Position numbers and translations under genes: made by a program. This document shows positions 3,854-63,118 of a DNA stretch of 64,000 nucleotides, one piece after another. This stretch comes from a virus. The stretch's first letter is position 1. Each line of letters begins with the position of its first letter. The stretch is taken from the IMG/VR virus record IMGVR_UViG_3300029431_000104; one strand, 5' to 3'. Under the pieces are notes generated by a model. That model was not told the origin of the DNA. It saw only the letters and a program-made list of their open reading frames with translations, and ran no database searches.

Positions 3854-3901
3854 ATGCCCTCTTTGGCTTTTTTTATTATGCGTCAAGGAGGTGGAACCCG
3901 T

Positions 3902-4483
3902 ATGGGGCGCAAGAAGAAAAATGCAAGACATAGCGTGCATGGTCGCAAGATTCATGTCAACAAGTACATCAATCAATGCGGAAAAACCAAGAAGTGCCGC
4001 AAGTCAGCAGTATCCTGGCGGCCGGCATCGAAAGAAACACCGTTTAATGATATGCCGACCTACCAGTGGCCGACTGTGAGAACCCCAAAACAGTATGAAG
4101 TCTGGTTCGCAGAGCTAGGCGATCACTCTGGCACTTCGGTGCAGAGCGGTACACGTCCAGTTCTGGTCATCAGCAATGACGTGGCGAATCGTAATTCCCC
4201 GGTCATTACAGTGATTCCGCTGAGTTCCAAGTTGAAGAAGCTGGAACTTCCGGTACACATCGTACTTACAGAAAAAGAGTGTGAGATGCTCAGGGATGAG
4301 CATTTGGAGGATTCCATCCTGCTGGTGGAGCAGATCACAACCATCGATAAGATGGTTCTGTTTAATCGGCTCTGCTATGTGGTCTCCGTTCAGAAGAAGT
4401 ACGAGATCGAAGCGGCTGTCACAAAGCAGTTTGCGATGCGGGCTTCAACACATGGTGCGAATTCTACGAGAAAGGAGGTCTGA
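3902..4483 (+). CDS. PemK/MazF-family endoribonuclease-like protein with N-terminal basic Cys/His extension
   Basis: Core YEVWFAELGDHSGTSVQSGTRPVLVISNDVANRNSPVITVIPLSSK matches the PemK/Kid/MazF signature (GEIW..LDPT.G.EQ.G.RPVLIV....VVPVTS). Strong RBS AAGGAGGTG sits before the ATG at 3902. An alternative start is the ATG at 4052 (core only). The N-terminal ~50 aa is K/R/H/C-rich (HSVHGRKIHVNKYINQCGKTKKC). Confidence 0.65.
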   Translation: MGRKKKNARHSVHGRKIHVNKYINQCGKTKKCRKSAVSWRPASKETPFNDMPTYQWPTVRTPKQYEVWFAELGDHSGTSVQSGTRPVLVISNDVANRNSPVITVIPLSSKLKKLELPVHIVLTEKECEMLRDEHLEDSILLVEQITTIDKMVLFNRLCYVVSVQKKYEIEAAVTKQFAMRASTHGANSTRKEV

Positions 4484-7406: not shown

Positions 7407-8474
7407 ATGAGTAAGATTATCACCTGTGAACAGGTCAGCAATGGCCATCCTGATAAGATCTGTGACCAGATCGCAGATGCTATTGTGACCGACATTCTTC
7501 AGCATGACAGGCACGCCCGTGTGGCGATCGAGTGTCTGCTGAAAAAGAGCCAGCTCTTTATTGCCGGCGAGGTCACCACCGACTACCGGCCAAACTACAA
7601 CCAGATCGTCCATGATGTGTTCAATCGCATCGGCGCCGAAAAGCTGGGGTGGAACCTGACCGAGCTTCTTCGCATCGGCATTCTGGTGGACAAGCAGTCC
7701 CCGGACATTGCACTGGGTGTGGACAAGGGCGGTGCCGGTGACCAGGGCATCATGTATGGCTACGCCACCAACGAGACAGCAGAGCAGATGCCAATCCCGT
7801 ACATGGTTGCCACCAAGTTCCTGCAGCTGCTGAAGAACCATCCGTCCAAGATGTTCCGAGCAGATGCCAAGGCGCAGGTCAGCTACGATTACGACACCGG
7901 CCGAATCACCACCTTCCTCTGCTCCGTGCAGCACAGCCCGGATGTGGAGGTCAGCGACTTCCGGCATATCATCGAATCCATGATGGTGCTGGCCGCCTGC
8001 GAGTACGGTCTGGATGGTGACTTCACGAAGCTGGTTAATCCGACCGGTCGTTTCGTGCTGGGCGGCAGCTATGCTGACTGTGGTGTGACTGGCCGGAAGC
8101 TGGCGTGCGATACCTACGGTGGCATCGGTCGCATGGGTGGTGGTGCATTGAGTGGCAAAGACCCTACCAAGGTGGACCGCTCCGCAGCATACATGGCTCG
8201 GAAGATCGCCAAAGACATCGTGCAGGCGGGCTACGCTGACAAGTGCGAAGTCCAGCTGGCTTACGCCATCGGCGTGGTACAGCCAGTCGGTGTGTCGGTG
8301 GAGTGCTTCGGTACAGAGCACCAGTCCCTTGACTTCATCGAAGCCTACGTCCATGACAGCTACGACCTGACCCCGCAGGGTATCATCAAGCGGCTGGGAC
8401 TGCTGGATGTAGATTACAACAAGGTCAGTGCTTACGGTCACTTCGGCAAGGCTGGTCTTCCGTGGGAGGACTGA
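7407..8474 (+). CDS. metK: S-adenosylmethionine synthetase (methionine adenosyltransferase), phage-encoded
   Basis: N-terminal hallmark SNGHPDKICDQIADAI; GAGDQGIMYGYATNET; DAKAQVSYDYD; NPTGRFVLGGSYADCGVTGRKLACDTYGG; GGGALSGKDPTKVDRSAAY. These motifs are collinear with bacterial MetK over the whole length (355 aa). Confidence 0.9.
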   Translation: MSKIITCEQVSNGHPDKICDQIADAIVTDILQHDRHARVAIECLLKKSQLFIAGEVTTDYRPNYNQIVHDVFNRIGAEKLGWNLTELLRIGILVDKQSPDIALGVDKGGAGDQGIMYGYATNETAEQMPIPYMVATKFLQLLKNHPSKMFRADAKAQVSYDYDTGRITTFLCSVQHSPDVEVSDFRHIIESMMVLAACEYGLDGDFTKLVNPTGRFVLGGSYADCGVTGRKLACDTYGGIGRMGGGALSGKDPTKVDRSAAYMARKIAKDIVQAGYADKCEVQLAYAIGVVQPVGVSVECFGTEHQSLDFIEAYVHDSYDLTPQGIIKRLGLLDVDYNKVSAYGHFGKAGLPWED

Positions 8475-49998: not shown

Positions 49999-50168
49999 AA
50001 ACACTCCCCGTCCTTACCGGGCGGGGCGTACATATCGTGCAGATAAGACAATAATCTCCCAGATTATTCTCCGTCTTTCTGCGCCGAAATTACTTGATAA
50101 TATCACGAAACAGAGGGAATATGTGACTGCCCAAAGAGAAGAAAACGGGCAGGAAAGGAGCGAAAACT

Positions 50169-52529
50169 ATGAGTACTGGTACGGATTTCCTTGCAAATCT
50201 GCAGAAAAAGACTGTGAAGAATACAGTACAGCAGAAACAGCAGAAGAGAGTAAATGCATCTGCTGTGGATGTCTCGGCTTTACTGGAAGCCGCTCTTGGG
50301 AAAAAGAAACCTGTGGAAGCTGTGGCAGATGTCCGTCAAAGTGCGGAGGCTGTCACAGCTTCTTTTTTACCACCGACTGACACGCACCAGGGCAAGTCTA
50401 CTCAACAAAAACCAAAAAACGCATCAGATAAAAAACAGACACCCCAAAAATCAAAAGACATCGTGGATGCCGGTATCACAGCTCTTATCCAGAAGGCTCT
50501 GGATGCCAAAAAGGTCATGGCAGAGCCTGACATTGCAGAACGGCTGCAGAGCAGTATGGAGAGTGAGTTTACGAAGCTCTTCACACCGGAAGAACCGCAG
50601 GATAACAAGTTCGTTTCGACGGCGACCTTCCGGGCTACCAAAAAGAAAGCCGGAACCCTTAATGTGGCAGCTTACATCCGCGTTTCTACGGACATGAGCG
50701 ACCAGGAGAACTCCTATGAAACGCAGGAAAAATACTTTAACCAGCTGATTGAAAATAATCCGGCATGGAATGCAGTCGGTGTGTACTCCGATTACGGCAT
50801 CTCCGGCACTTCCAAGGAAAAGAGAACCGGATTCCGCCGACTGATGCGTCATTGTAAGGACGGGAAGATCGACCGCATTGTGTGCAAGTCCATATCACGA
50901 TTTGCCCGAAACACGGCTGACTTTATGAGTGCACTGGATGTCCTGCATGACTGCGGGGTAACGATTCTGTTCGAGAAAGAAAATCTGGATACGGCAGACC
51001 CGACCAGCGACTTCATCCTTACGACACTGGCAGCCATTGCACAGGAAGAAAGCCGCAGCATTTCCAGTAACATCCGGCTGGGGCAGAAGATGCGCTTTCC
51101 GAAGGGGGATGTTCCAAACAAGATCATGTACGGATACCGCTACAATGGGAAGATGGTTACCTCCGAGAGCGGATATGAGTATAAAGATATTGAGATCGTT
51201 GAGGAAGAAGCCAGGGTCGTCCGGCGCATTTTCCATGAAGTCGTGGAAGGGAAAGCCTATACGGAGATTGCAAGGGGACTGAACATGGACAAGATTCCGG
51301 CTCCTGTCACCGACGCAGTGAGAGTAAGAAAGAAAAAATCCAAGAAAGGGCAGTTAAACAGTGATCTGTTGGATGGATGGACAGGCGGGAATATCACGCG
51401 GATCGTCCGTGCCGAGCGGTACATGGGTGCAGTCCTTATCCAGAAGAAGTTCACATCGGATTACCTGACACATGAAGTCCGGGACAACAAAGGCGAAGTT
51501 CCTCAGTATTTTGTCCGGAACCATCATCCGGCAATCGTTGACGAGGACCTGTTTGAAAAGGCACAGGAAGTTGTAAAAGTAAACAGCGATTTATATAACA
51601 GGACAAGATCCGGCAAGAAGCCGAGAGCGTTTTCCCAAAGACTAATCTGCGGGGAGTGCGGCCGCTTTTTCCATGTGACAAACGGAAATGGGAACTATCC
51701 CATCTGGCGGTGCCCGACGAGCAGCCGGACGACAGGAAAACGTATCTGCCATGCAGAAAAAGTATACGAGGAACAGGTTGTCCGAGCCTTCCGTAAAGCA
51801 GTTCTGGAGCGGTTCCGGCTGACGCTTAAGCCCATCCATGACAACGTGGCTGTGGCAGACATCATGAGCGGCCGGTTCAAAGAGCAGTATGACAACTTCA
51901 CCCCGGAAGCAGATTCTTTTGTAAGCCAGATGCTTGCACGGCTGGAGAGCATTCAGAAGCTGGATTTTATGGAACGCGACCGTGCTTTTTATAAAAAGCA
52001 GATAGCGGCCGCACACACCAGTGTGGAAAGCACCAGTAAGAAGATCCGGCTCCTGAAAAGTCAGGTGGATGTGATGCAGACCCGTCTGGAACTTCTCGGT
52101 GACGAGATGATTGACCCTGCTTCTATTGAGGAGAAGAAAAAGCTCATTGAGAAACTGGAGTGTGATATTCAGAAGGACACGGACACTGAGCAGAAACTGA
52201 CCGAACAGCTCGACTATATGGAAGACTACTGGGAAGAACTGGAGGGCGACTATGAACGAAGGGAAAAGGCAATCGAGTGGATGAAGAACCTCCCGGCGGG
52301 GCGGGATGGTACGGTGGCCTTTCTGAATGAAGTGACCGAAGAACACTGCAAGGCATTCCTCCTCTCCATCACGATTCATTCACCGCTGAAGTTTACGGTA
52401 CACTGGTTCGATGACACCAAGACCGAGGTAGAGATGGATTCCAATATCGAAGATTACCGCAATACCGCAAGCTATTATGACGGGCATACGAAGCGCGACG
52501 GCAGCCAGCGGAAGAGGCATGTAAGATAA
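50169..52529 (+). CDS. large serine recombinase 1
   Basis: Resolvase catalytic domain AAYIRVSTDMSDQENSYETQ...RLMRHCKDGKIDRIVCKSISRFARN. Recombinase domain. Zn ribbon CGECG...WRCPT..C. Coiled coil. An alternative start at 50517 (MAEPD) is possible because the first 116 aa are low-complexity. Confidence 0.8.
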   Translation: MSTGTDFLANLQKKTVKNTVQQKQQKRVNASAVDVSALLEAALGKKKPVEAVADVRQSAEAVTASFLPPTDTHQGKSTQQKPKNASDKKQTPQKSKDIVDAGITALIQKALDAKKVMAEPDIAERLQSSMESEFTKLFTPEEPQDNKFVSTATFRATKKKAGTLNVAAYIRVSTDMSDQENSYETQEKYFNQLIENNPAWNAVGVYSDYGISGTSKEKRTGFRRLMRHCKDGKIDRIVCKSISRFARNTADFMSALDVLHDCGVTILFEKENLDTADPTSDFILTTLAAIAQEESRSISSNIRLGQKMRFPKGDVPNKIMYGYRYNGKMVTSESGYEYKDIEIVEEEARVVRRIFHEVVEGKAYTEIARGLNMDKIPAPVTDAVRVRKKKSKKGQLNSDLLDGWTGGNITRIVRAERYMGAVLIQKKFTSDYLTHEVRDNKGEVPQYFVRNHHPAIVDEDLFEKAQEVVKVNSDLYNRTRSGKKPRAFSQRLICGECGRFFHVTNGNGNYPIWRCPTSSRTTGKRICHAEKVYEEQVVRAFRKAVLERFRLTLKPIHDNVAVADIMSGRFKEQYDNFTPEADSFVSQMLARLESIQKLDFMERDRAFYKKQIAAAHTSVESTSKKIRLLKSQVDVMQTRLELLGDEMIDPASIEEKKKLIEKLECDIQKDTDTEQKLTEQLDYMEDYWEELEGDYERREKAIEWMKNLPAGRDGTVAFLNEVTEEHCKAFLLSITIHSPLKFTVHWFDDTKTEVEMDSNIEDYRNTASYYDGHTKRDGSQRKRHVR
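50393..50410. repeat. 18-bp direct repeat CAAGTCTACTCAACAAAA (copy A)
   Basis: Identical 18-mer at 61312-61329; partial copies at 61352-61367 and 61752-61765. Confidence 0.7.
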
Positions 52530-52563
52530 GACCAGTTGCAAGGCTGGAAGAAAGGAGCAGATT

Positions 52564-54864
52564 ATGACAAGACAAAAAGTGGATGTGATCCCCGCCAGTG
52601 TGCGCTCGGTACAGAACGGCGGGCAGCTGAAAAGCCAGACCAACATCCGTGTGGCGGCTTACTGCCGTGTTTCCACCGGCGATGAGAGTCAGCAGACTTC
52701 CTACACGACACAGAAAGCATTCTACAAAGACCTCATCACCCGGAAGCCCGGCTGGATCTTTGCCGGCATCTACGCGGATGAAGCAAAATCTGGTACCAAC
52801 CGGGAACATCGAGAAGAATTCAACCGCATGATAAAAGATGCGATGAATGGAAAGCTGGACTACATCGTTACAAAGTCCATTTCCCGATTCGCACGAAACA
52901 CCATTGACTCCCTGACCTGTACCCGTGAGCTTCGGCAGCTGAAGCCGCCAGTGGGTATCTATTTCGAGAAAGAAAACATCGACACGCTGGACGCCAAAGG
53001 TGAGCTGATCCTGACGATCCTTTCTGCACTGGCACAGGATGAGAGCCGTTCCATTTCCGATAACATCCGATGGAGCATCCAGAAGAAGTTCCAGTCTGGT
53101 GTCCCGCATATCAATCTGAAACGGATGCTGGGATATGAGCTTGGGGAAAATAAGCAGTGGGTCATCGTGCCGGAGCAGGCAGAGATCATCCGCTACATTT
53201 TTGACCGTTTCGTGAAAGGCCAGACGGCGAATAAGATCGCTCAGGAGCTGAACCAGATGGAAAAATTCACGGTCAACGGGAAGAAGTGGAGTGCCAGCTC
53301 GATCCTGATCGTCCTGCGGAATGAGAAGTATGTGGGCGACATCGAGATGCAGAAGACCATTACCAAAGACTTCCTTACCCACCGTTCCAGCATCAACAAG
53401 GGCGAAGCACCCCGGTACTATGTGAAGAACCATCATGTGGGCATCATCGACCGCGTGACTTGGGATAAAGTGCAGACCATGCTGTTCGAGAAGCCGAGGG
53501 CAGATATGACGAAAGGCCCCGGCAAGAAAAAGGTAAAGAGCATTAAGGGTTCTCCGTTTGGAAACCTGCGCTGTGGTGCGATCCTGGAGAATGGGCCGGA
53601 TACCGGAAAGCCCTGCGGGGAGGGATTCTTCCGTACAACCTACACGGGTGTGGCAAATGGTTACAGCGATGAGCGGAGTCTTAAGGCGACTGGTGAGGAT
53701 ACCGGAGAGTATCTGGAAAAATACACCTATTCGTATCCCGTTTGGCGGTGCAAGCGTAAGGTCGGGGAGCGGGACGGTGAGCCGCCGAAGAACGGTTCTC
53801 CCGACCAGAAGGCGTATTGCCGGAGCAAGAAAGGCTGCATGTCGGATGAGGAAAAGGAAGCGGCAAACAAGCGCTGCCCCTCAGAACGCTACCATGAGTG
53901 TGCGCTGGAGCAGAGTTTCATGGAACTGCTCTACAGCATGAAGCGTGACTTTGAACAGCACGGTGATGCCTCCATGATCGTGACGATGTTTGACAACGCC
54001 TATGAGCAGGCTGTCCGGCTGGCGAATAACAACAGCATCTCGGTGCAGAGGATGGCAACGGTGGAAAATCAGATCAAGGAGATGGAAGAACGCCTGCAGG
54101 ATGCCATCAGCCATCAGGTGGCGGCGCTTCGGGAAGCTGCACTGGAACAGAACGTGGAACTGAATGAAGCCCTTTCCAACGGGGAAGTGACCATTGACGA
54201 CATCGACCTGGACATCCGGAGCGGACTGACACCGGGAAGCATCGGAGTGAGCTTCTATGGGACGGAAACGGAGGAAGGCTCGGAAGCCCAGATTTATACA
54301 GAACTTGTGAACGACCTGCAGGAACGGCTGAAAACACTCCAACAGGAACGGCAGACGATCGAGGAGGAACAGGGTGTACTGGCGATCATGAAAAAGAACT
54401 TTGAATACTTCCTTGCCTGCCTGAAAGAACTGCCGGATACCAATGCAGGCGGAATGCCGCTGAGAGTCAACGGTCTGGATGTACAGGGAACCCTGCTTCG
54501 GGATGTGGACGGAAATGCCATCGAAGGCCGGAAACGTGCCATCACCAGCGGAAAGCTCAAGCTGACTCCTGAGCGGATCGCAGAAGCACCAGATATGCTT
54601 CACTTTGAAAAAGGCATCTACTGTGCTTTTGTTGAGAGCGGGGTACTGCAGGGGGATGTGGCAACCTATAAGACAAACTTCGGTGTGACACTGACCTCAA
54701 AAGGCAACCGCAGAACGCTCGACAGCTTCATGGGTTATAAGCGGAGTGACATGGACGGTAATGTGGTCTATGTGGATGCTCCTTATAAGGTGTACGGATT
54801 CAGCATTCAGTACCGCAGATACCTGACAACTGCAGCGAAGCGCGAGAGGGAAGAAGCGGTGTGA
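52564..54864 (+). CDS. large serine recombinase 2
   Basis: AAYCRVSTGDESQQTSYTTQ...GKLDYIVTKSISRFARN; recombinase and zinc-ribbon domains; 35 bp downstream of recombinase 1 on the same strand. Confidence 0.85.
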   Translation: MTRQKVDVIPASVRSVQNGGQLKSQTNIRVAAYCRVSTGDESQQTSYTTQKAFYKDLITRKPGWIFAGIYADEAKSGTNREHREEFNRMIKDAMNGKLDYIVTKSISRFARNTIDSLTCTRELRQLKPPVGIYFEKENIDTLDAKGELILTILSALAQDESRSISDNIRWSIQKKFQSGVPHINLKRMLGYELGENKQWVIVPEQAEIIRYIFDRFVKGQTANKIAQELNQMEKFTVNGKKWSASSILIVLRNEKYVGDIEMQKTITKDFLTHRSSINKGEAPRYYVKNHHVGIIDRVTWDKVQTMLFEKPRADMTKGPGKKKVKSIKGSPFGNLRCGAILENGPDTGKPCGEGFFRTTYTGVANGYSDERSLKATGEDTGEYLEKYTYSYPVWRCKRKVGERDGEPPKNGSPDQKAYCRSKKGCMSDEEKEAANKRCPSERYHECALEQSFMELLYSMKRDFEQHGDASMIVTMFDNAYEQAVRLANNNSISVQRMATVENQIKEMEERLQDAISHQVAALREAALEQNVELNEALSNGEVTIDDIDLDIRSGLTPGSIGVSFYGTETEEGSEAQIYTELVNDLQERLKTLQQERQTIEEEQGVLAIMKKNFEYFLACLKELPDTNAGGMPLRVNGLDVQGTLLRDVDGNAIEGRKRAITSGKLKLTPERIAEAPDMLHFEKGIYCAFVESGVLQGDVATYKTNFGVTLTSKGNRRTLDSFMGYKRSDMDGNVVYVDAPYKVYGFSIQYRRYLTTAAKREREEAV

Positions 54865-54879
54865 TGGAAGGAGACAGGA

Positions 54880-54927
54880 CCCTGCCGGGTGTGGCTTTTG
54901 TGGCTGCATCTGGCAGGGCTTTTTTTG
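54880..54927 (+). terminator. rho-independent terminator after the recombinase pair
   Basis: CCCTGCC...GGCAGGG stem followed by TTTTTTTG. Confidence 0.5.
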
Positions 54928-55075
54928 TTTAATGTTTTATTGTGCTGCTATTTTGCCTTTTTTTGTCTGGCCTTTTTTACCCGTAAGGATTGCTATGTGC
55001 AGAATCCTGTTATATGTTGTGGGTGGCGAGAAATACACATACGACAGAAAATACACATAGCGAGGAGTGTTTGGA

Positions 55076-55465
55076 ATGAAAGATGTAGCTGGGATGCTGG
55101 CAGAGAAATATGGTGCAACAGCTGATGAAATTGTGGCGGCCGGTGCTATGAAATTATATCTCCAGAGCATGGAGCCGGCAGAGGCACTGAGAAAGGTGAG
55201 GGCTGTGTATGAGCCAAAAGTGATCCGGCTTGACAGTGGCGAAGGCGTGCCGGTACAAAGCAATATTGATGGTGCAAAGTACGCTGCGTTCATCGATGAG
55301 TCCTTGGCGTTTGCGGATCAGAAGATGAGAGAGCGTGGGGATGCACTGGCAGAAATGGTTATGGAAAAGTTGAAAGCCGTGGAAGGAAGGTGCCTGATCG
55401 AGTGTGCCAGCGTGGAGTTCATAAGTTTTATCGAGGATGCTTATCGGTGCCTGAAAAGCCGGTGA
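55076..55465 (+). CDS. hypothetical protein (129 aa)
   Basis: ATG 55076 after GAGGAG; the ORF track starts at an upstream GTG. Confidence 0.4.
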   Translation: MKDVAGMLAEKYGATADEIVAAGAMKLYLQSMEPAEALRKVRAVYEPKVIRLDSGEGVPVQSNIDGAKYAAFIDESLAFADQKMRERGDALAEMVMEKLKAVEGRCLIECASVEFISFIEDAYRCLKSR

Positions 55466-55582
55466 AAATTACTGGAAAGTTCACAGAAGACCGCTTGATA
55501 AACGGATGGCTTTATGGTAACATGAAAATACAATAGGGGTATTGTATACTCCGATTGATAACACTTTGAGGAGGTGGCACCG

Positions 55583-56416
55583 ATGGCCGAAACACTGGAG
55601 GAACGAAAGAAAAGGCATCATCAAGAAGACCTTCAACGTTTACGAGGTTTTAGACCGATTGATGATACTTTCATGCGTTGCCTTTTTAGAAACAACGTGC
55701 CATTAGCGGAAATGGTGCTGCGCATTATAACAGGGAAGACCGATTTACAGCTGGTTTCTTGTGAAACTCAGGCTGATTTAAAACGCGTGACAGGTGCAAA
55801 ATCTATTCTTTTGGACGCTTATGGTACAGATTCAATGGGAAAAAAGTACGACATTGAAGTTCAAAGAGCGGATATCGGAGCAGATCCACACCGTGCCAGA
55901 TATCATTCCAGCATGATGGATATTGAAAATCTTGATGCAGGAGAGGATTTCAGCAGTCTGCCAGATACTTATGTGATCTTTATAACAGAAAACGATTATT
56001 TTGGAGAAAACCAGCCATTATATCCTATACAGAATATAATTACCACAACTGGAAAGCCATTTAATGATGGAACGCATATCATATATGTGAACGGCGAGTA
56101 TCGTGGGGATTCTGATGTTGGAAAATTGATGCATGATTTTAACTGTACGCAGGCTAATGATATGATTTTCCCGTTAATGGCAGAGAAGACCAGGTATCTT
56201 AAAGAAAACCCGAAAGGAGTGAGCGAAGTGTGCAAGCAGATGGAAGATTTAAGAAATGAGAGTATTCTTGAGGGCATCGACATTGGCGACCTTAGAACGA
56301 CAGTAAAGTATTATAAAAAGGGCAAGATTACCCTTGAAGAAGCTGCTGAGGACTTGAACATGACTGTGGAAGAATTTAAAGAGAAGATGAACCAAATTCC
56401 AGCAGAAGCAGTATAA
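55583..56416 (+). CDS. Rpn-family PD-(D/E)XK nuclease / putative transposase
   Basis: 277 aa from the ATG at 55583 (GAGGAGGTGG RBS). PIDDTFMRCLF...LLDAYGTDSMGKKYDIEVQRAD...YVIFITEND matches Rpn/YhgA-like (TIGR01784-type) conservation. Confidence 0.7.
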   Translation: MAETLEERKKRHHQEDLQRLRGFRPIDDTFMRCLFRNNVPLAEMVLRIITGKTDLQLVSCETQADLKRVTGAKSILLDAYGTDSMGKKYDIEVQRADIGADPHRARYHSSMMDIENLDAGEDFSSLPDTYVIFITENDYFGENQPLYPIQNIITTTGKPFNDGTHIIYVNGEYRGDSDVGKLMHDFNCTQANDMIFPLMAEKTRYLKENPKGVSEVCKQMEDLRNESILEGIDIGDLRTTVKYYKKGKITLEEAAEDLNMTVEEFKEKMNQIPAEAV

Positions 56417-56424
56417 AACATACC

Positions 56425-56480
56425 AGCCCACTGGCGCACTGTGTAGATTCCTACATGGTCCGCTGGTGGGCTTCTTTTTT
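56425..56480 (+). terminator. rho-independent terminator
   Basis: AGCCCACTGGCG ... CGCTGGTGGGCT stem followed by TCTTTTTT. Confidence 0.5.
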
Positions 56481-56581
56481 AGTCCATACCCGTATAAACC
56501 ACAGACAGCACTTCGGTGTGTTCCAAAGTGCAGTTGTGGCTTATGCGGGCTTTTTTGTTATATGATCAACAAGTTATAAAA

Positions 56582-56923
56582 TCAAACTCCTAAGCCGTAT
56601 AAAATTGCTTTCATCTCCTTTACCATCCGGGTGAGAATCTCCTGCTCAATTGCATTACAGTCTAAAAGCAGACGGTGGATCTCGGAATCGGCAGTGGACG
56701 CGGAGTGCGCCAAACTGTCTACAAGAAGATCATCTGCTGAGGCATTCAGAAAGTTTGCAATCTGAATGAGTGATTCCAAACTTGGTTTGCTCTTTCCGAG
56801 TTCTATGTTGCTAATGTGCTTGTTTCCAACTCCGCAGCTGAAAGCAAGTTCTTCCTGTGATAAATTTTTCTTGCTCCTGAAATCAGCGATACGCTGTCCA
56901 AGTGCGATATAGTCAATTGCCAT
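56582..56923 (-). CDS. XRE-family HTH transcriptional regulator
   Basis: 113 aa from the ATG at 56923 (TAAGGAGG RBS); LSQEELAFSCGVGNKHISNIELGKSKPSLESLIQIANFL = HTH_3. Confidence 0.75.
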   Translation of the reverse strand: MAIDYIALGQRIADFRSKKNLSQEELAFSCGVGNKHISNIELGKSKPSLESLIQIANFLNASADDLLVDSLAHSASTADSEIHRLLLDCNAIEQEILTRMVKEMKAILYGLGV

Positions 56924-57163
56924 GTGTTCCTCCTTATGAATCCCGCATAAGGCAATACGATTATCCCGCATGAAAATGCACATAGCAACCGATCTACAGC
57001 TAAGACCGCAAAGTCCTTCACTCCTATCAGTAGTGTGGTCTTAGCCCCTTTTTCCACCTGCTAGGTGGAATTTTTAAGTTCACTCCACCTGTTAAGTGGA
57101 GGTCAAATCATCATGCAACCCTTATAATGTAAATGAGGGAAAGACTGCATACAGAAAGGAACG

Positions 57164-58144
57164 ATGATGGCGAACAAAGGAGAAACAGGAATTCTTACAT
57201 TATATAGTGATGTACAGGCGACTGCCGTCCGCTGGTTGTGGTATCCGTTCATTGCAGTTGGAAAAATCACATTGCTGCAAGGCGACCCCGGTGACGGTAA
57301 GTCCACAATGATGATGAATCTGATAGCAGAACTGTCCAAGGGCGGAACTCTGCCAGATGGAAAAATCATCGGAATGCCGCAGAGGGTCATTTATCAGTGT
57401 TCCGAAGATGGTGTTTCAGATACCATAAAGCCCCGACTGGAAAAATGCGGAGCTGATTGCAGAAATGTTGCATTTATTAATGAAGAAACATACGGTGGTC
57501 TGACACTGGATGATGAACGTATCCGGCAGGCTATCATAGAATTTCGACCGCGGCTGGTAGTAATCGACCCGATACAGGCGTATCTCGGAAGCGATTCTGA
57601 TCTTCAGATTGCCGGAAGAGCCAGAAAGCTGATGCAGCGTCTGGGCATGTGGGCATCTGTATATGACTGTGCCATTGTGCTGATCGGCCACCTCAATAAA
57701 AAAGAGGGAACAAAGGGACTTTACCGGAGTCTTGGCAGTATCGATGTTGTGGCAGCGGCACGAAGTGTCCTTCAGGTGGAACGAGATCCTAAAGACGCTG
57801 ACATTCGTATCGTGCGGCAGATAAAAAACAGTCTGGCTCCATCCGATGGAGAGATTCGTTTTTCAATAACTGCAGAAGACGGATTTCGTTGGCTGGAGTG
57901 TGAGATTGCACCAGACCCAACAGCGGAGCCGGAATCACCAAATTTTGAATCGAAGACTGAAAAAGCAGCATATCTGATAAAAAAGCTGCTATCTGAAGGA
58001 GACATGAGGTCCAGAGAAATTTATATACGGATGAGCGATGAAGGAATCAGCCACAGGACAGCAGAAAATACAAAGAAAGAACTCGGCATCCGAAGTTATC
58101 GGAAGATGCGTCAGTGGTATTGGAGCATAAAGCCGGAAGAATGA
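57164..58144 (+). CDS. RecA-like AAA_25-family ATPase
   Basis: Walker A GDPGDGKST; Walker B LVVIDPIQAY; typical companion of ICE/transposon recombinases. Confidence 0.65.
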   Translation: MMANKGETGILTLYSDVQATAVRWLWYPFIAVGKITLLQGDPGDGKSTMMMNLIAELSKGGTLPDGKIIGMPQRVIYQCSEDGVSDTIKPRLEKCGADCRNVAFINEETYGGLTLDDERIRQAIIEFRPRLVVIDPIQAYLGSDSDLQIAGRARKLMQRLGMWASVYDCAIVLIGHLNKKEGTKGLYRSLGSIDVVAAARSVLQVERDPKDADIRIVRQIKNSLAPSDGEIRFSITAEDGFRWLECEIAPDPTAEPESPNFESKTEKAAYLIKKLLSEGDMRSREIYIRMSDEGISHRTAENTKKELGIRSYRKMRQWYWSIKPEE

Positions 58145-58154
58145 GAGGAAGTAC

Positions 58155-59987
58155 ATGATAAGAAGTGAAGCAGAAGCGGTAGACCGCAAGCAAAGGATAA
58201 GAGACAGATACAAAGGTGTGGATACCTCTGAATTAGAGGTTATCCCGGCAAAAGCAGTGGAGGGGCTTGGAGAAAGCACCTCTATTCGGCGTGTCGCCGC
58301 TTATGTCCGTGTTTCTACTGATAATGATGAGCAGACTTCTTCTTATGAACTTCAGAAAAATTATTATACAGAGTACATAAAGGCACAGCCGGGATGGGAG
58401 TTCGTTGGAATTTACGATGATGAAGGCATCAGTGGAACATCGCTGGAGCATCGTAAGGGAATGCAGCAGTTGATTGAAGATTGCAAAGCAGGAAAGATAG
58501 ACCTGGTCCTTACGAAGTCCATCGCCCGTTTTGCCCGAAACATTGTGGATTGCCTTTCTGTCATTGAAACACTGAAAGATCTTGATCCACCTGTAGGTGT
58601 GAAATTTGAAGCGGATAATATTTATACGCTTGACAGTAACGGTCGTATGATCCTGACGATTTTGGCATCAGTTGCCGAAGAAGAATCTCATTCCAAGTCA
58701 ATCATTATGAACTGGTCCATTGACCGCCGGTTCAGCCGCGGACTGTTCCTGACGCCTGCTCTGCTTGGATATGATCAGGATGAGGACGGCAATCTTGTAG
58801 TGAATCCAGCGGAGGCTCAGACGGTAAAGGTCGTTTACTATCTGTACCTGAATGGATTTTCATTTACTGAGATTGCAGAGCTTTTGACAGAATATGGTCG
58901 GAAGACAAAATTGGGGAACACAGAGTGGAACCCAGGCACTCTTGCAGGTGTCATTGCCAATGAACGCCATTGTGGAGATGTGCTGGCGAGAAAGACTTTC
59001 ACGCCAAATTTTCTAACACATAAATCAAAGAAAAATAATAATGATCGGACGCAATACCGGCAAAGGGATCATCACGAGGCAATCGTGTCCAGAGAAGTCT
59101 ATAATGCAGCAAATCATCTGCGGGCATCCAGAAGTTATGCAAAGAAAAATCGTCCTTTGCCAGTTTTGAGTGTCGTGAATGATGGAATCCTACGAGGATA
59201 TGTTCCTTTCGACAAGGACTGGACTGGCTTTTCAGCGGAGGAATATCGGGAGGCATCTGAAAGTGTGATGCAAGAGAAGCCGGCCGATACCACAGAGGTT
59301 ATGAATCGCCTGGATCTTTCTGGCTATGAAGTAGTACGGGCGCAGTATTTCTCAACGTTGCGGAATCCGGCCATGACGATTTCAAATGGCAAGTTGCGTT
59401 TCAATACTGCCTGCCTGAAAAAATTTGAAGATGTGGAGTATGTGGAACTGCTTCTGAACTCGGTTGATCGCTGTGTTGCAATCCGGCCGTGTGAAAAGAG
59501 CAATCCGAATGCGATTCACTGGGGAAAGCTGAAGGAAGGTCGGTGGTGTGCCAGTACACTTGGATGCCGTGGTTTGGCAAAGACCCTTTTTGACATCATG
59601 GAATGGGAAGAAGGATTGAAATACCGTTTCCGGGGTCAGTTTGTGGAGCAGAGAGATAATAAGCTGATGCTTTTTGAACTGGATGAACCGGAGATGGTAA
59701 AAATTGAGGAGATTGTTCTGCCACCGAAGGAAGAAGAATCGGAAGGCAAGACAGTCAAGCAGACAATCTACATTTTCCCACCAGAATGGGCAGGAACTTT
59801 TGGACAGCCGATTACGAGTATTGCACAAGTCGGTATTTTGCAACAGGAGCATTACTCTGGAAACTGGGATGTACTCCGGCCAGCCACAGAAATAGAAGAA
59901 ATGAATACATTTACCGCAGATGGTTTGAATGCACTGCTCCATGAAGCGGAAAAGATAATGGAAGGATGGACAGATACGGATGAATGA
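58155..59987 (+). CDS. large serine recombinase 3 with C-terminal DUF4368-like domain
   Basis: AAYVRVSTDNDEQTSSYELQ...GKIDLVLTKSIARFARN; recombinase domain; the C-terminal ~200 aa is homologous to the two downstream ORFs. Confidence 0.85.
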   Translation: MIRSEAEAVDRKQRIRDRYKGVDTSELEVIPAKAVEGLGESTSIRRVAAYVRVSTDNDEQTSSYELQKNYYTEYIKAQPGWEFVGIYDDEGISGTSLEHRKGMQQLIEDCKAGKIDLVLTKSIARFARNIVDCLSVIETLKDLDPPVGVKFEADNIYTLDSNGRMILTILASVAEEESHSKSIIMNWSIDRRFSRGLFLTPALLGYDQDEDGNLVVNPAEAQTVKVVYYLYLNGFSFTEIAELLTEYGRKTKLGNTEWNPGTLAGVIANERHCGDVLARKTFTPNFLTHKSKKNNNDRTQYRQRDHHEAIVSREVYNAANHLRASRSYAKKNRPLPVLSVVNDGILRGYVPFDKDWTGFSAEEYREASESVMQEKPADTTEVMNRLDLSGYEVVRAQYFSTLRNPAMTISNGKLRFNTACLKKFEDVEYVELLLNSVDRCVAIRPCEKSNPNAIHWGKLKEGRWCASTLGCRGLAKTLFDIMEWEEGLKYRFRGQFVEQRDNKLMLFELDEPEMVKIEEIVLPPKEEESEGKTVKQTIYIFPPEWAGTFGQPITSIAQVGILQQEHYSGNWDVLRPATEIEEMNTFTADGLNALLHEAEKIMEGWTDTDE

Positions 59988-60672
59988 AGATACAATTATT
60001 GTGCCTCCGGAAGAGCAGGCAGAAAATGATAGAGACGCAAGAGCGGAAGAATTAGAAAGTACATTTTCCTATGATGGATACCAGGTCGTGCGGAAGGAGC
60101 TGTTTGCACATCTTCGTGACCCTGCAATTGTGATCCGCAAGGACAGCATTACATTTAACACAGCCTGCATCACTGGGCTGGAAGATGTGGTTTATGTACA
60201 TGTCATGTTCAACAGTGATTTGAAGCGCATTGTTGTACGCGGTTGTGATGAAAATGACAAGGATGCCCTGCGCTGGTGCATCGCCAAGCCGGATAAACGT
60301 AAAAGCCGGAAGATGACCTGCAAACCGTTTTCAGAACTGGTGTATAAGGAAATGGGCTGGGATACCGAATGCCGATATAAGATGCTTGGGTACAGAATTT
60401 CGTTTGAAGGGGAAACTCTGTATGTTTTTGACCTGCTCGTGCCGGAGATCTTCCATGAGGGCCAGAAGCGAAAAAATGGAACAGACCAGAAAAATGCACA
60501 AGAGGCAAAGCCTGCAAATACCAGAAAGGGATTTTACCCAGATGATATTGCGGGTACTTTTGGCGTACCTGTAGAAGAACATCTGAAAGAATCCGAAGTT
60601 CAGCAAATGGATGGCTATGTATCGGTGGGGATGCTGACGGGTAAGACCATCCCCGATACCGGGCTTGATTAA
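59980..60672 (+). CDS. standalone paralog of the recombinase-3 C-terminal domain (DUF4368-like)
   Basis: YDGYQVVRKELFAHLRDPAIVIRKDSITFNTACITGLEDVVYVHVMF...RIVVRGCDEN aligns to the recombinase 3 C-terminus (LSGYEVVRAQYFSTLRNPAMTISNGKLRFNTACLKKFEDVEYVELLLNSVDRCVAIRPCEKSN). Confidence 0.5.
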   Translation: MNEDTIIVPPEEQAENDRDARAEELESTFSYDGYQVVRKELFAHLRDPAIVIRKDSITFNTACITGLEDVVYVHVMFNSDLKRIVVRGCDENDKDALRWCIAKPDKRKSRKMTCKPFSELVYKEMGWDTECRYKMLGYRISFEGETLYVFDLLVPEIFHEGQKRKNGTDQKNAQEAKPANTRKGFYPDDIAGTFGVPVEEHLKESEVQQMDGYVSVGMLTGKTIPDTGLD

Positions 60673-60728
60673 AACGGCAACCAGGATTCCAAGGGGGAAG
60701 TGCGCCCATTTTTAAGGAGGGGAGAGTA

Positions 60729-61205
60729 GTGAACGAAAGAATATGGAACCAGCGGATGCTGGGTCTGACTTTTAATGTCGAAGATGGAAGGATCACAATC
60801 TTCCGCAGCACATTGGAAGCATTAGGCTGGCCAACTCACTATCGTTTCCTGTACAACCGAGAGGCAAAACAGGTAGCTGTGCAGAACTGTACGGCTGAAG
60901 ATGCAGGAGCTCATAAGACACCGAAGCTGACTGTGAGCAACAGCTGCGAGATCAAGTGCGTGGCATTGGTGCGGATGATCTACCGGGACATGCGGTGGAA
61001 CCGGAACAATACATATCGTCTGGAGGGGAAAAGTATCCCCAGACAGCAACTTGTGAGTTTCGATTTAGGCACTCCGTTTTTGGTCGAAAACGGGAAAGCT
61101 CTGGACGAAAATCCAAGCCTCACAAAGCCCCTGTGTGGCGAAGGATTGTCCGCTGCGGAAAGTTCCTCGGCCTCGCCAATTAAACGCGACAGTGGGGCGC
61201 TGTGA
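60729..61205 (+). CDS. second standalone paralog of the same domain
   Basis: GTG start after AAGGAGGGGAGA; ...GRITIFRSTLEALGWPTHYRFLYNREAKQVAVQNC... weaker similarity to the same domain. Confidence 0.4.
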   Translation: MNERIWNQRMLGLTFNVEDGRITIFRSTLEALGWPTHYRFLYNREAKQVAVQNCTAEDAGAHKTPKLTVSNSCEIKCVALVRMIYRDMRWNRNNTYRLEGKSIPRQQLVSFDLGTPFLVENGKALDENPSLTKPLCGEGLSAAESSSASPIKRDSGAL

Positions 61206-61311
61206 GGGGTGTGTGGCGAAGTCGGCAAAAGGCAGCCAACCGGGTAAAAATCCAGGATGCTTGCAAGGCAGCAAGGTGGAAGGTGACCGGGTGGGCAGGA
61301 GGCTATACAGA

Positions 61312-61329
61312 CAAGTCTACTCAACAAAA
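61312..61329. repeat. 18-bp direct repeat CAAGTCTACTCAACAAAA (copy B) plus partial copies at 61352 and 61752
   Basis: Read directly; copies B and C are each followed by an AGTGA-N6-TCACT palindrome. Confidence 0.7.
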
Positions 61330-61330
61330 C

Positions 61331-61713
61331 AGTGATTATAATCACTCCTGACAAGTCTACTCAACAAGTGAATAAAATCACTTTTGCACCTATGAACGTA
61401 AAAAATAAGTGATTAAGCTCACTTGTGGCTATTGGAAATAAGTGATTTTGTTCACTTAGAAAAAGTGAGCTTTTTACGCCACCCGGAGTTTTGGGTGATG
61501 CTATCATTTGGTAAAAATAAGTGATTATAATCACTAAAAGTCATTACAAACTGAAATAAGTGAGCTTAATCACTTATAAGGAAAAAAGTGAATATTTTAC
61601 GCTCTGATGTACTTTGAGGTCGTCGATTAGTCAATAATCGGCGGCTTCTTTTTTATGCCTGGAAAAGCGGGGATGTAGCTACATACGGCAATAAGTGAGC
61701 TTTATACGCCACC
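61331..61713. promoter_or_regulatory. array of six AAGTGA-N6-TCACTT inverted repeats plus three AAGTGAGCTTT(T/A)TACGCC half-site motifs
   Basis: Palindromes at 61331-61346, 61368-61382, 61407-61424, 61440-61457, 61519-61535, 61558-61575. Half-site motifs at 61462-61484, 61583-61605, 61690-61713. AT-rich non-coding DNA. Confidence 0.6.
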
Positions 61714-61845
61714 GTCGAGCAACTTCTCCGAACAAATTTGAGTACAGAAATGTCTACTCAACAAACTGTATTGACGTGCGTGCGGTGCTATCAGTGTTTG
61801 AAAGTCTGTCCGTTCAAAGAAGCACAAGCATAGGATGGAGAGAAA

Positions 61846-62748
61846 ATGAAAACAACATTACTTATCATGGCGGCCGGAATCGGCAGCCGATTTGGAATAG
61901 GAATCAAACAGTTGGAGCCAGTAGATGCTTCTAATCATATTATCATGGACTACTCAATCCATGATGCAATTGAAGCAGGTTTTAACCATGTGGTATTTAT
62001 TATTCGTAAGGACATCGAGAAAGAGTTCAAAGAGGTAATTGGTGAGCGTATTGCCTCTATTTGCGCTTCTCATGATGTAACTGTGGACTACGCTTTCCAG
62101 GATATCAATGATATTCCGGGAACTCTGCCGGAAGGTCGCACAAAACCTTGGGGAACAGGTCAAGCCGTGCTTGCAGCAAAGGACGTAATTAAAACTCCGT
62201 TCATCGTGATCAACGCAGACGATTACTATGGCAAGGAAGGCTTCAAGGCCATCCACGAGTATCTGGTAAATGGCGGTGAGTCTTGCATGGCTGGCTTTGT
62301 GCTGAAGAACACACTGTCCGATAACGGTGGTGTGACTCGTGGTATCTGCAAAATGGATGGGAATGGAAACTTGACTGAGGTTGTGGAAACCAAGAACATA
62401 GTCAAGACTGCAGATGGAGCAGAGACAGATGGTGTGGTTGTTGATGTAAATTCTCTGGTTTCCATGAATATGTGGGGCTTGACTCCTGATTTTCTGGATG
62501 TGCTGGAAAATGGTTTCAAGGAGTTTTTCGAGAAAGAAGTACCGAGCAATCCTCAGAAAGCCGAGTATCTGATCCCAATCTTCATCGGTGAGCTGCTGGA
62601 GCAGGGAAAGATGTCCGTAAAGGTCCTGAAGACCAACGATACTTGGTATGGTATGACCTACCACGAGGATGTCGCAGCCGTAAAAAACAGCTTCAAGAAA
62701 ATGTTGGCGGATGGTGTGTACAAGGCTGATTTGTTTTCAGACTTGTGA
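61846..62748 (+). CDS. sugar-phosphate nucleotidyltransferase (probably host gene)
   Basis: LIMAAGIGSRFG (GxGxR nucleotidyltransferase motif), VINADDYYG; 300 aa. Confidence 0.7.
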   Translation: MKTTLLIMAAGIGSRFGIGIKQLEPVDASNHIIMDYSIHDAIEAGFNHVVFIIRKDIEKEFKEVIGERIASICASHDVTVDYAFQDINDIPGTLPEGRTKPWGTGQAVLAAKDVIKTPFIVINADDYYGKEGFKAIHEYLVNGGESCMAGFVLKNTLSDNGGVTRGICKMDGNGNLTEVVETKNIVKTADGAETDGVVVDVNSLVSMNMWGLTPDFLDVLENGFKEFFEKEVPSNPQKAEYLIPIFIGELLEQGKMSVKVLKTNDTWYGMTYHEDVAAVKNSFKKMLADGVYKADLFSDL

Positions 62749-62788
62749 TATAATTGAGCTACCATAATAGGAAAGAGGTTTGTGTCCT

Positions 62789-63118
62789 ATGCCCAGAACA
62801 AAAGGTAGCAAGAATAAGCCCAAAACTGTGACTGCTGATTTTGCAACGCAGATTGCGGAAAAGCAGTCCGCGAAGGAAGCACTCACAGCGGAAATCGCAT
62901 CCATCACCGCCAACATTGACACTTTAAAGGCTAACCTGAAAGAGAAGAAGACTGCTCTGAAGAAGGCCGAAAAAGAAGTGGCAACGCTGGAGGCAAAAAA
63001 GGCGAAGGCAGACGCCAAAGCTGCAGAAGAAACAAAAAAGGCTGAAGCAGAGTCCGTTTTGAAAAAGTTGCTTGCCGAAGGCATGAGTGCTGATGAAATT
63101 CTCGCAAAACTGAAATAA
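62789..63118 (+). CDS. small Lys/Ala-rich coiled-coil protein beginning MPRTKGSKNKPK
   Basis: ATG 62789 after GAAAGAGG; the N-terminus is similar to the gene starting at 63943 (MPRTKKKVKS). Confidence 0.4.
   Translation: MPRTKGSKNKPKTVTADFATQIAEKQSAKEALTAEIASITANIDTLKANLKEKKTALKKAEKEVATLEAKKAKADAKAAEETKKAEAESVLKKLLAEGMSADEILAKLK

Follow-up and report, generated by a model that had tools for sequence, protein, structure and literature searches.

Large serine integrases of phages such as Listeria A118 (LI Int), phiC31, Bxb1, TP901-1 and SPbeta (SprA) are encoded by genes with Resolvase and Recombinase domains, with or without a Zn ribbon, that lie close to the phage attachment (att) site. This attP is about 55 bp long, with imperfect dyad symmetry and a 2-bp centre; it shares with the bacterial attB almost nothing but the central dinucleotide, and hybrid sites switch partner there. 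The same layout is found in the stretch of viral DNA analysed here (the window; 64,000 nucleotides of IMG/VR record IMGVR_UViG_3300029431_000104), in which three large serine recombinase genes (LSR1, LSR2 and LSR3) are followed by a site designated attP2. Unlike the phage serine integrase systems, this locus has three recombinase genes instead of one, and orphan copies of half of the site lie ~400 bp away from it and within a recombinase open reading frame (ORF). SPbeta is reported to be inserted by SprA into the polysaccharide gene spsM (PMC5499854); the attP2 phage likewise appears to interrupt a polysaccharide-pathway gene, ugd (UDP-glucose dehydrogenase). Use of ugd as attB of a serine integrase was not found in a full-text literature search.

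Streptococcal integrative and conjugative elements (ICEs) of the Tn1549, Tn5252 and TnGBS2 groups carry serine integrase triplets, and their insertion disrupts mutT, traG and hsdM (Ambroset et al. 2016, PMC4701971). The present locus is similar in having several paralogous LSR genes at the element extremity and in site-specific insertion that disrupts protein-coding genes. It differs in belonging to a tailed phage and in the arrangement of its genes: LSR1 and LSR2 are adjacent, LSR3 lies 3.3 kb off with four genes between, LSR3 is absent from one relative (L087) or has other partners elsewhere, and one relative has four LSR genes. Three contiguous paralogues inherited as a unit, as in the ICE triplets, are not found here.

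Recombinases of the TnpX/TndX type, from clostridial transposons, keep to one central dinucleotide and are able to insert at several targets. Those of Tn4451 (TnpX) and Tn5397 (TndX) are among the closest solved or named relatives of the LSR1 catalytic domain, the only part that can be aligned, and attP2 also has several targets with ugd as the main one; the centre here is AA and not GA, and the element is a phage. The lambda Int arm sites, res subsites II/III and KplE1 IntS, for which repression through sites in the att region is reported (PMC2951348), involve extra recognition copies outside the crossover, close to the site and within or beside the gene of the recombinase. The orphan copies resemble these, although the enzymes concerned are tyrosine integrases or small resolvases and the role of the orphan copies is putative. 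For large serine integrases, we know of no comparable accessory or arm-type sites, nor of such autoregulation, that have been established. These enzymes are prized for genome engineering and are thought to need two short sites and no accessory DNA.

Comparison with relatives, genomes and uninterrupted host genes identifies attP2 (61723-61777) as a serine-integrase attP, with crossover at AA and with the Asn codon of APTN/YD in ugd as target. Relatives are ~110 related IMG/VR loci gathered with LSR3 and LSR1 as queries and cited by their L numbers. When the four site types are aligned, attP, attB and both hybrids change partner exactly at AA 61749-61750. Six attP2 sequences (the window, L120, L136, L129, L118 and L122) were set against six uninterrupted ugd genes, which read ...GCACCTACC-AA-CTACGATAGC (attB2), against junctions of the ugd 5' part with AA and the P' arm in eight genomes of different genera, and against junctions of the P arm with AA and the ugd 3' part in four contigs. 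In the latter (L021, L038, L269, L270), a P arm ending ...TTTGAGTGCAGAAAT, or the variant ...TAGTCCAGAAA[CT], is joined to the ugd codons NYDS....

The junctions with the ugd 5' part come from a scan for GTCTACTCAACAAACNNTATTGAC in one genome per species, which gave 18 places in Lachnospiraceae, Faecalibacterium, Lawsonibacter, Blautia, Enterococcus columbae, Streptococcus infantarius and Streptococcus alactolyticus. The DNA before this 26-mer is variable and ends in AAT; in eight of the places it is the 5' part of ugd, ending ...APTN. Genomes with this junction include those of Streptococcus infantarius ATCC BAA-102, Enterococcus columbae DSM 7374, Blautia faecis DFI.3.66 and Clostridium sp. 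C105KSO13. At least nine other left flanks, also ending in AA, represent targets besides ugd. Homology among the relatives stops at 61777/61778, just past the fourth copy of the motif described below, and the flanks beyond the P' arm differ among the window, L002, L004, L011/L013 and L020. The site has imperfect dyad symmetry (13/26 positions agree when the P arm is aligned with reverse-complemented P', and TTGAGTA/TACTCAA blocks stand on either side of AA), and the nearest LSR gene ends 1.7 kb away. The sequence-level features of a serine-integrase attP are therefore present: nearby LSR genes, a dyad site of ~50 bp, and hybrids that switch at one dinucleotide. The attP2 of the window is unrecombined. 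On integration, the P' arm and the cargo adjoining it come to lie beside the 5' part of ugd. These comparisons define a new pair of sites, the 55-bp attP and the APTN/YD codons of ugd as attB, and give evidence that many Firmicutes have a polysaccharide-precursor gene targeted by a family of multi-integrase gut phages, which carry replacement polysaccharide and defence genes beside the site.

In one relative (L016:13450-13800), three units of ~30 nt read CATTTTTCCG[AG][AG]GAATTAGAGGTGG, and the first is followed by AATGTCTACCTCAAACTTTCAG. The latter is a variant right partner of the P arm that is also seen in L005, L060 and L268. Repeated TTATGACAATAAG[GA]..CAGCACTTTG pieces near these units look like fragments of the ugd B' arm. 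Covariation of the motif copy in LSR1 with P' was considered for this lineage and fails, since L005 and L268 combine a window-type LSR1 with the variant right partner.

The preliminary description of the window had drawn attention to an 18-mer, CAAGTCTACTCAACAAAA, at 50393-50410 and 61312-61329. The two are indeed identical, and the partial copies it placed near 61352 and 61752 are present at 61352-61369 (two mismatches) and 61749-61766 (three mismatches). Its judgement that chance is negligible also holds: four matches to the 18-mer occur against 0.02 expected, and no shuffle reached four. The four copies share an exact 13-nt core, GTCTACTCAACAA (at 61355 and 61752 in copies 3 and 4; 0.06 expected), which lies on the + strand only; no reverse-strand copy of the motif exists in the window at up to three mismatches. 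This core corresponds to positions 3-15 of the attP2 P' arm, its crossover-proximal part, so that copy 4 belongs to attP2 itself. Copies 1-3 are orphans, which retain 13-16 nt of the inner P' arm and have lost its outer part; they share CAA+GTCTACTCAACAA, where attP2 reads AAT+GTCTAC..., and their centre is thus CA as against AA. The 18-mers are orphan copies of the P' core, and they are not the ends of an element.

The orphan copies differ in age and distribution. Copy 3 is the ancestral one and is kept in every relative with an identity of ~80% or more; together with ~65 bp of flank it is missing from the L016, L021 and L024 lineages. Copy 2 was brought in by the 40-bp insertion at 61310-61349, which is found only in the window, L014, L020 and L066 and is absent from L002, L004, L009, L011, L037, L064 and L087. 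The motif is not a common host sequence, a possibility named in the preliminary description: 0.97 Mb of Faecalibacterium contigs contain four copies of the core, each of them in a phage att context. A full-text literature search for the motif returned only unrelated matches.

Two further functions were considered for the repeat. Inverton (invertible promoter) repeats are ruled out for the window, where all four copies are direct; inverted copies are known only from an element of other genomes (Z, below), where an AA centre that is not palindromic speaks against inversion. A role as -35 box or promoter of the extracytoplasmic function (ECF) type is also ruled out, as the spacing to -10-like boxes varies between copies.

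We infer that LSR1 and/or LSR2 is the integrase of attP2 and of the orphan copies, because the motif tracks the LSR1/LSR2 clade and not LSR3. Every locus with an LSR1 homologue at least 64% identical carries the motif, and none of the ~20 loci with LSR1-like proteins of at most 51% identity does; five of these hold LSR3 at 89-90%. None of the other phages that carry the LSR3 cassette alone or with unrelated LSR pairs has it.

Taken together, the repeat is probably the P' core of attP2, read by LSR1 and/or LSR2, and the orphan copies are probably extra integrase-binding sites with a possible autoregulatory role. The alternative offered in the preliminary description, that the repeats are recombinase-binding or regulatory sites, one of them positioned to act on recombinase 1, agrees with this in that the motif is the P' core of an attP and co-occurs with the LSR1/LSR2 clade; binding and regulation themselves are putative. 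Mismatched central dinucleotides block productive exchange by serine recombinases. The CA centre would keep the orphan copies from recombining, and they would be binding-only sites because CA is mismatched to AA. The copy in the 5' coding part of LSR1 might allow LSR1 to dampen its own expression, and the copies ~400 bp upstream of attP2, together with a palindrome array between them and the site, might help to assemble the attP2 complex or to regulate it (directionality).

Conservation of the orphan copies is consistent with such a role. Four codons of copy 1 (TCT ACT CAA CAA) are invariant in 13 relatives, amid flanking codons that are the most variable of the region. A 21-nt stretch of copy 1, GGCAAGTCTACTCAACAAAAA, is identical to a non-coding orphan copy in the unrelated backbone L122, where two orphans lie 440-470 bp upstream of attP2 and are followed by AGTGA...TCACT palindromes. 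In L119, an inverted partial orphan copy is found at -420 from attP2. The sole change in copy 1 occurs in the L016 lineage (a 70% relative) and is synonymous (ACT to ACC).

Several points weigh against this reading. No single contig was found to hold both junctions of one prophage, and the junctions between P arm and ugd all carry just 37-70 ugd codons followed by other (phage) cargo; these short pieces look as if they were captured by imprecise excision. The correlation between the motif and LSR1/LSR2 is based on one clade, and the recombinase gene nearest to attP2 in L119 is LSR3-like. Other runs of four invariant codons are present in the N-terminal region of LSR1; because these exist and the only change in copy 1 is synonymous, the conservation test is suggestive and not decisive, and constraint on the peptide alone could explain copy 1. 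Lineages L016 and L021/L024 retain an attP2-type P arm yet lack the orphan copies, which are therefore not essential. To our knowledge, large serine integrases do not use accessory sites, and simple att sites are held to be sufficient.

The most serious competitor of the binding-site reading is that the orphan copies are functionless relics of the attP2 core, left by duplication or illegitimate recombination, with the LSR1 copy kept as protein-coding sequence. Such an origin is conceivable and is given a minor share of the probability. It would account for the attP2-keeping lineages without orphan copies, for the recent arrival of the 61312 copy in a 40-bp insertion, and for the synonymous substitution and neighbouring invariant runs in LSR1, and the surroundings of attP2 are rich in rearrangements, captured gene fragments and deletions. 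It fits poorly with the recurrence of CAA+GTCTACTCAACAA orphans, non-coding and at a similar distance from attP2, in the unrelated L122, one of which has a 21-nt stretch in common with copy 1; with the nucleotide invariance of copy 1, an island among the most variable codons; and with the strict co-occurrence of motif and LSR1/LSR2 clade. If the orphan copies are inert, the outcome is a well-delimited new serine-integrase att site only.

A wider version of the binding-site reading was also formulated. In it, the integrase system would use accessory half-sites, namely an autoregulatory operator in its own ORF and architectural or directionality sites ~400 bp from attP, and a multi-integrase phage would insert into ugd across Clostridia and Bacilli, swapping host polysaccharide genes for its own cargo, driven by a conserved ~750-nt non-coding element without an Rfam family. 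This full scheme is speculative and on balance unlikely to hold in all its parts. If it were true, conserved extra half-sites, one of them inside the integrase gene, would amount to an unrecognised control layer for large serine integrases.

The non-coding element in question, Z, is a conserved sequence of 725-765 bp that adjoins the right-hand end of the P' arm in 18 genomes of Clostridia and Bacilli (e.g. L134:1912-2658, and L125-L140), with ~85-95% identity by eye. The window is without Z and keeps just its first 26-27 nt (61751-61777). Z is always followed, on the same strand, by sugar or polysaccharide genes (ugd, pgm/glmS, glycosyltransferases, epimerase). It contains TACTCAAC at least five times, in both orientations, as well as two pairs of long inverted repeats and a TGGCAC-N5-TGGCA box of sigma-54-like type, and its right end (..GTGTACATAGA before AA) resembles the P arm. 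No match to Z was found in Rfam. In the RNAalifold model, a long helix of Z shows GU-to-AU changes, and its 3' hairpin has three compensatory pairs. Z could be a structured leader or an integrase-mobilisable cassette. The 26-mer after AAT is not the left end of Z as an independent element: Z has no mobility genes, and the 26-mer is the P' arm. Beside the attP2 site there is thus a widespread conserved non-coding element outside any RNA family.

Z also bears on the idea that the motif is read by a factor other than the integrase, either a phage regulator such as the XRE protein or an excision factor, or an RNA that pairs within Z with an inverted copy, GGTTTGTTGAGT, 255 nt downstream. The repeated TACTCAAC copies in both orientations and the long inverted repeats speak for it, RNAalifold retains the helix between P' and the inverted copy and places the GU-to-AU changes and the three compensatory pairs noted above in other helices, and the orphan copies adjoin an operator-like palindrome array. 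The P'-to-inverted-copy helix is itself invariant and so uninformative, however, and variation at two N positions of P' is uncompensated. RNA pairing cannot act in the window, because neither an inverted copy of the motif nor Z is found there. The distance from the motif to a palindrome or a -10-like box differs between copies 2 and 3, and the motif belongs to a dyad-symmetric recombination site. A non-integrase reader of the motif is therefore improbable.

Least tenable, and given almost no weight, is the proposal of the preliminary description that a nested integrative element of ~10.9 kb with three recombinases is bounded by the 18-mers at 50393 and 61312, as its att-like ends or as target duplications: the repeats are direct, identical at 18/18 nt, non-random and placed on either side of the recombinase genes, and the motif does form part of an att site, but ~40 related contigs are colinear across both 18-mers with the lysis genes always joined to LSR1, copy 1 sits in the conserved LSR1 ORF, the lineage-specific 61312 copy is missing in most relatives, both copies have the centre CA rather than AA, the breakpoints of relatives with an incomplete module (L087, L096, L062, L072) lie elsewhere, and the 18-mers cannot be an attL/attR pair because all copies are P'-type half-sites in one orientation.

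An empty-site comparison, proposed as a check on that element, gave no homology break, empty site or deletion at either 18-mer among the relatives. Their order is the same as in the window, from the lysis genes through 50393 to LSR1 and LSR2, and from LSR3 to 61312. Where relatives diverge, they do so at other positions: extra DNA is inserted at 50034, positions 55478-56154 are variable, L087 has lost 56420-60258, and LSR1 is fused to LSR2 in L096. The insertion at 50034 consists of an extra 1,022 bp that separate the endolysin gene from the LSR1 promoter region in many relatives (L074, L081-L086, L093, L102, L105). In L096/L014, a deletion fuses LSR1 (to 52356) with the end of LSR2 (from 54770). 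The coordinates of the features are collected in Table 1.

Table 1. Position, strand and basis of the recombinase genes, motif copies, att site and neighbouring features of the window
Feature	Position	Strand	Details	Basis
LSR1	50169..52529	+	Large serine recombinase, 786 aa, ~165-aa N-terminal extension	Pfam Resolvase, Recombinase, Zn_ribbon_recom
Orphan copy 1	50393..50410	+	Within LSR1 frame, codons G-K-S-T-Q-Q-K	
LSR2	52564..54864	+	Large serine recombinase, 766 aa	Pfam Resolvase, Recombinase
PDDEXK_2 protein	55574-56416			Domain search
XRE helix-turn-helix protein	56582-56983	-		Domain search
AAA_25 ATPase	57164-58144			Domain search
LSR3	58155..59987	+	Large serine recombinase, 610 aa; in XRE-AAA_25-LSR3 cassette	Resolvase and Recombinase
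40-bp insertion	61310..61349	+	Orphan copy 2 (18-mer 61312-61329) and palindrome AGTGATTATAATCACT	Relatives' comparison
Palindrome array	61331..61709	.	Six AGTGA-N6-TCACT palindromes and three AAGTGAGCTTTWTACGC half-sites; ~380 bp non-coding between orphans and attP2	
Orphan copy 3	61350..61369	+	GACAAGTCTACTCAACAAGT; 397 bp upstream of P' core; ancestral single copy	
attP2 P arm	61723..61748	+	CTTCTCCGAACAAATTTGAGTACAGA	Four-way att comparison
attP2 central dinucleotide	61749..61750	+	AA, predicted crossover	All att types change partner here
attP2 P' arm	61751..61777	+	TGTCTACTCAACAAACTGTATTGACGT; holds motif copy 4	Conservation across 18 genome loci and 7 viral contigs
Variable cargo	61778..63118	+	Gene fragment; NTP_transferase 61846-62748; coiled-coil gene 62780-63118	Domain search

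The start of LSR1, which determines whether copy 1 is coding, had been left uncertain between 50169 and 50517. It is settled as 50169 by a ribosome-binding site and ATG conserved at that position, by a frame that is open in 13/13 distinct relatives, and by indels between 50169 and 50517, every one of which is a multiple of 3. Copy 1, which had been placed in the 5' part of this gene or in its upstream region, is accordingly within the 5' coding frame and not upstream of the gene. Its sequence identity to characterised integrases is low, and no phage-encoded protein of the deposited collection exceeds 36% identity with LSR1. The nearest solved relatives of its catalytic domain are a conjugative-transposon recombinase (3g13), TP901-1 Int and TnpX (2mhc). 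LSR2 is 35% identical to LSR1 and 39% to LSR3.

The remaining content of the module was described largely correctly, with three recombinases and PDDEXK_2, XRE and AAA_25 proteins; the two ORFs called "DUF4368-like" (59980-60672 and 60729-61205) have no match in Pfam or PHROG. The former is similar, with 24-30% identity, to the C-terminal portion of LSR3. The XRE-AAA_25-LSR3 cassette is separable: it is missing in L087, and elsewhere it stands by itself or accompanies unrelated LSR pairs, which have 43-44% identity to LSR1/LSR2. Variants of the cassette region 56420-60258 are seen in L087 and L025-L056. In the 13-kb record MT836086 (L001), the LSR3 cassette is joined directly to genes from the left of this phage's replication module, an arrangement that could be a smaller element or satellite. 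One lineage (L006, L016, L017, L019, L059) has four large serine recombinase genes in a row-like order upstream of the LSR3 region, which are LSR1-like (64%), an extra LSR2-like (38%), LSR2-like (67%) and LSR3 (93-94%).

The palindromes between the orphan copies and attP2 are probably operators of a dimeric regulator. One of them includes a perfect TATAAT, and the AGTGA-N6-TCACT type is also conserved in the divergent L016, L021, L122 and L119. Within the array, a second attP targeting a Faecalibacterium site was considered at 61666-61667 (AG). In the Faecalibacterium contig L013 (13983; also L167:2846), phage DNA ending ...CCTGGAAAAG abuts host DNA at a point equivalent to 61658-61672 of the window (junction 61667/61668), and the empty host site, ...AATAACAG followed by GGCGGC upstream of groES, is found in 109/120 metagenome contigs. 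This remains a weak lead only, with no dyad symmetry and no left junction found, and other Faecalibacterium lysogens (L225/L038, L258, L136, L191) join host DNA at other points, which argues against it. Such a site could perhaps belong to LSR3; a similar stretch follows an 89% LSR3 in L027.

Up to ~50 kb, the window encodes a tailed phage, with an SNF2 helicase, a D5-type primase, an SAM (S-adenosylmethionine) synthetase, structural genes, a holin and an endolysin. None of the deposited phages is close, and there was no match among plasmids. The preliminary description assumed a prophage end near 61300, which is wrong: the DNA beyond 61777 is phage cargo and the map is circular. A prophage right end at 61777/61778, suggested by the five different right flanks, was likewise dropped. 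The far-right DNA of L011 and L066 matches DNA of L143 to the left of the phage replication genes; because of this match, the map closes into a circle of ~81 kb, and the sequence to the right of 61777 is variable phage cargo and not host DNA. The sizes of related contigs (78-87 kb) agree with this circle. Extension to the left through L111 and L143 came upon no left junction between phage and host.

A conserved coiled-coil gene follows the cargo in the window, L011 and L066 alike, and the slot that separates this gene from the P' arm is a cargo hot spot. The cargo of L011 (13584-16918) consists of a truncated NTP_transferase gene, VanZ and Thoeris ThsA/ThsB, and that of L066 (13604-20772) of a truncated Wzy, a flippase, UDP-galactopyranose mutase (GLF), an acyltransferase, an NTP_transferase and AbiGii. 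Look-ups of the exact NTP_transferase and coiled-coil proteins of the window gave no record. In four contigs, new DNA begins at most 1 nt from where the 27-nt P' arm ends, a sharper boundary than random deletion would predict. At the other end of the window, the early region includes a protein with a PemK/MazF-type toxin domain (3854-4483) and a full S-adenosylmethionine synthetase (MetK-like; 7407-8474).

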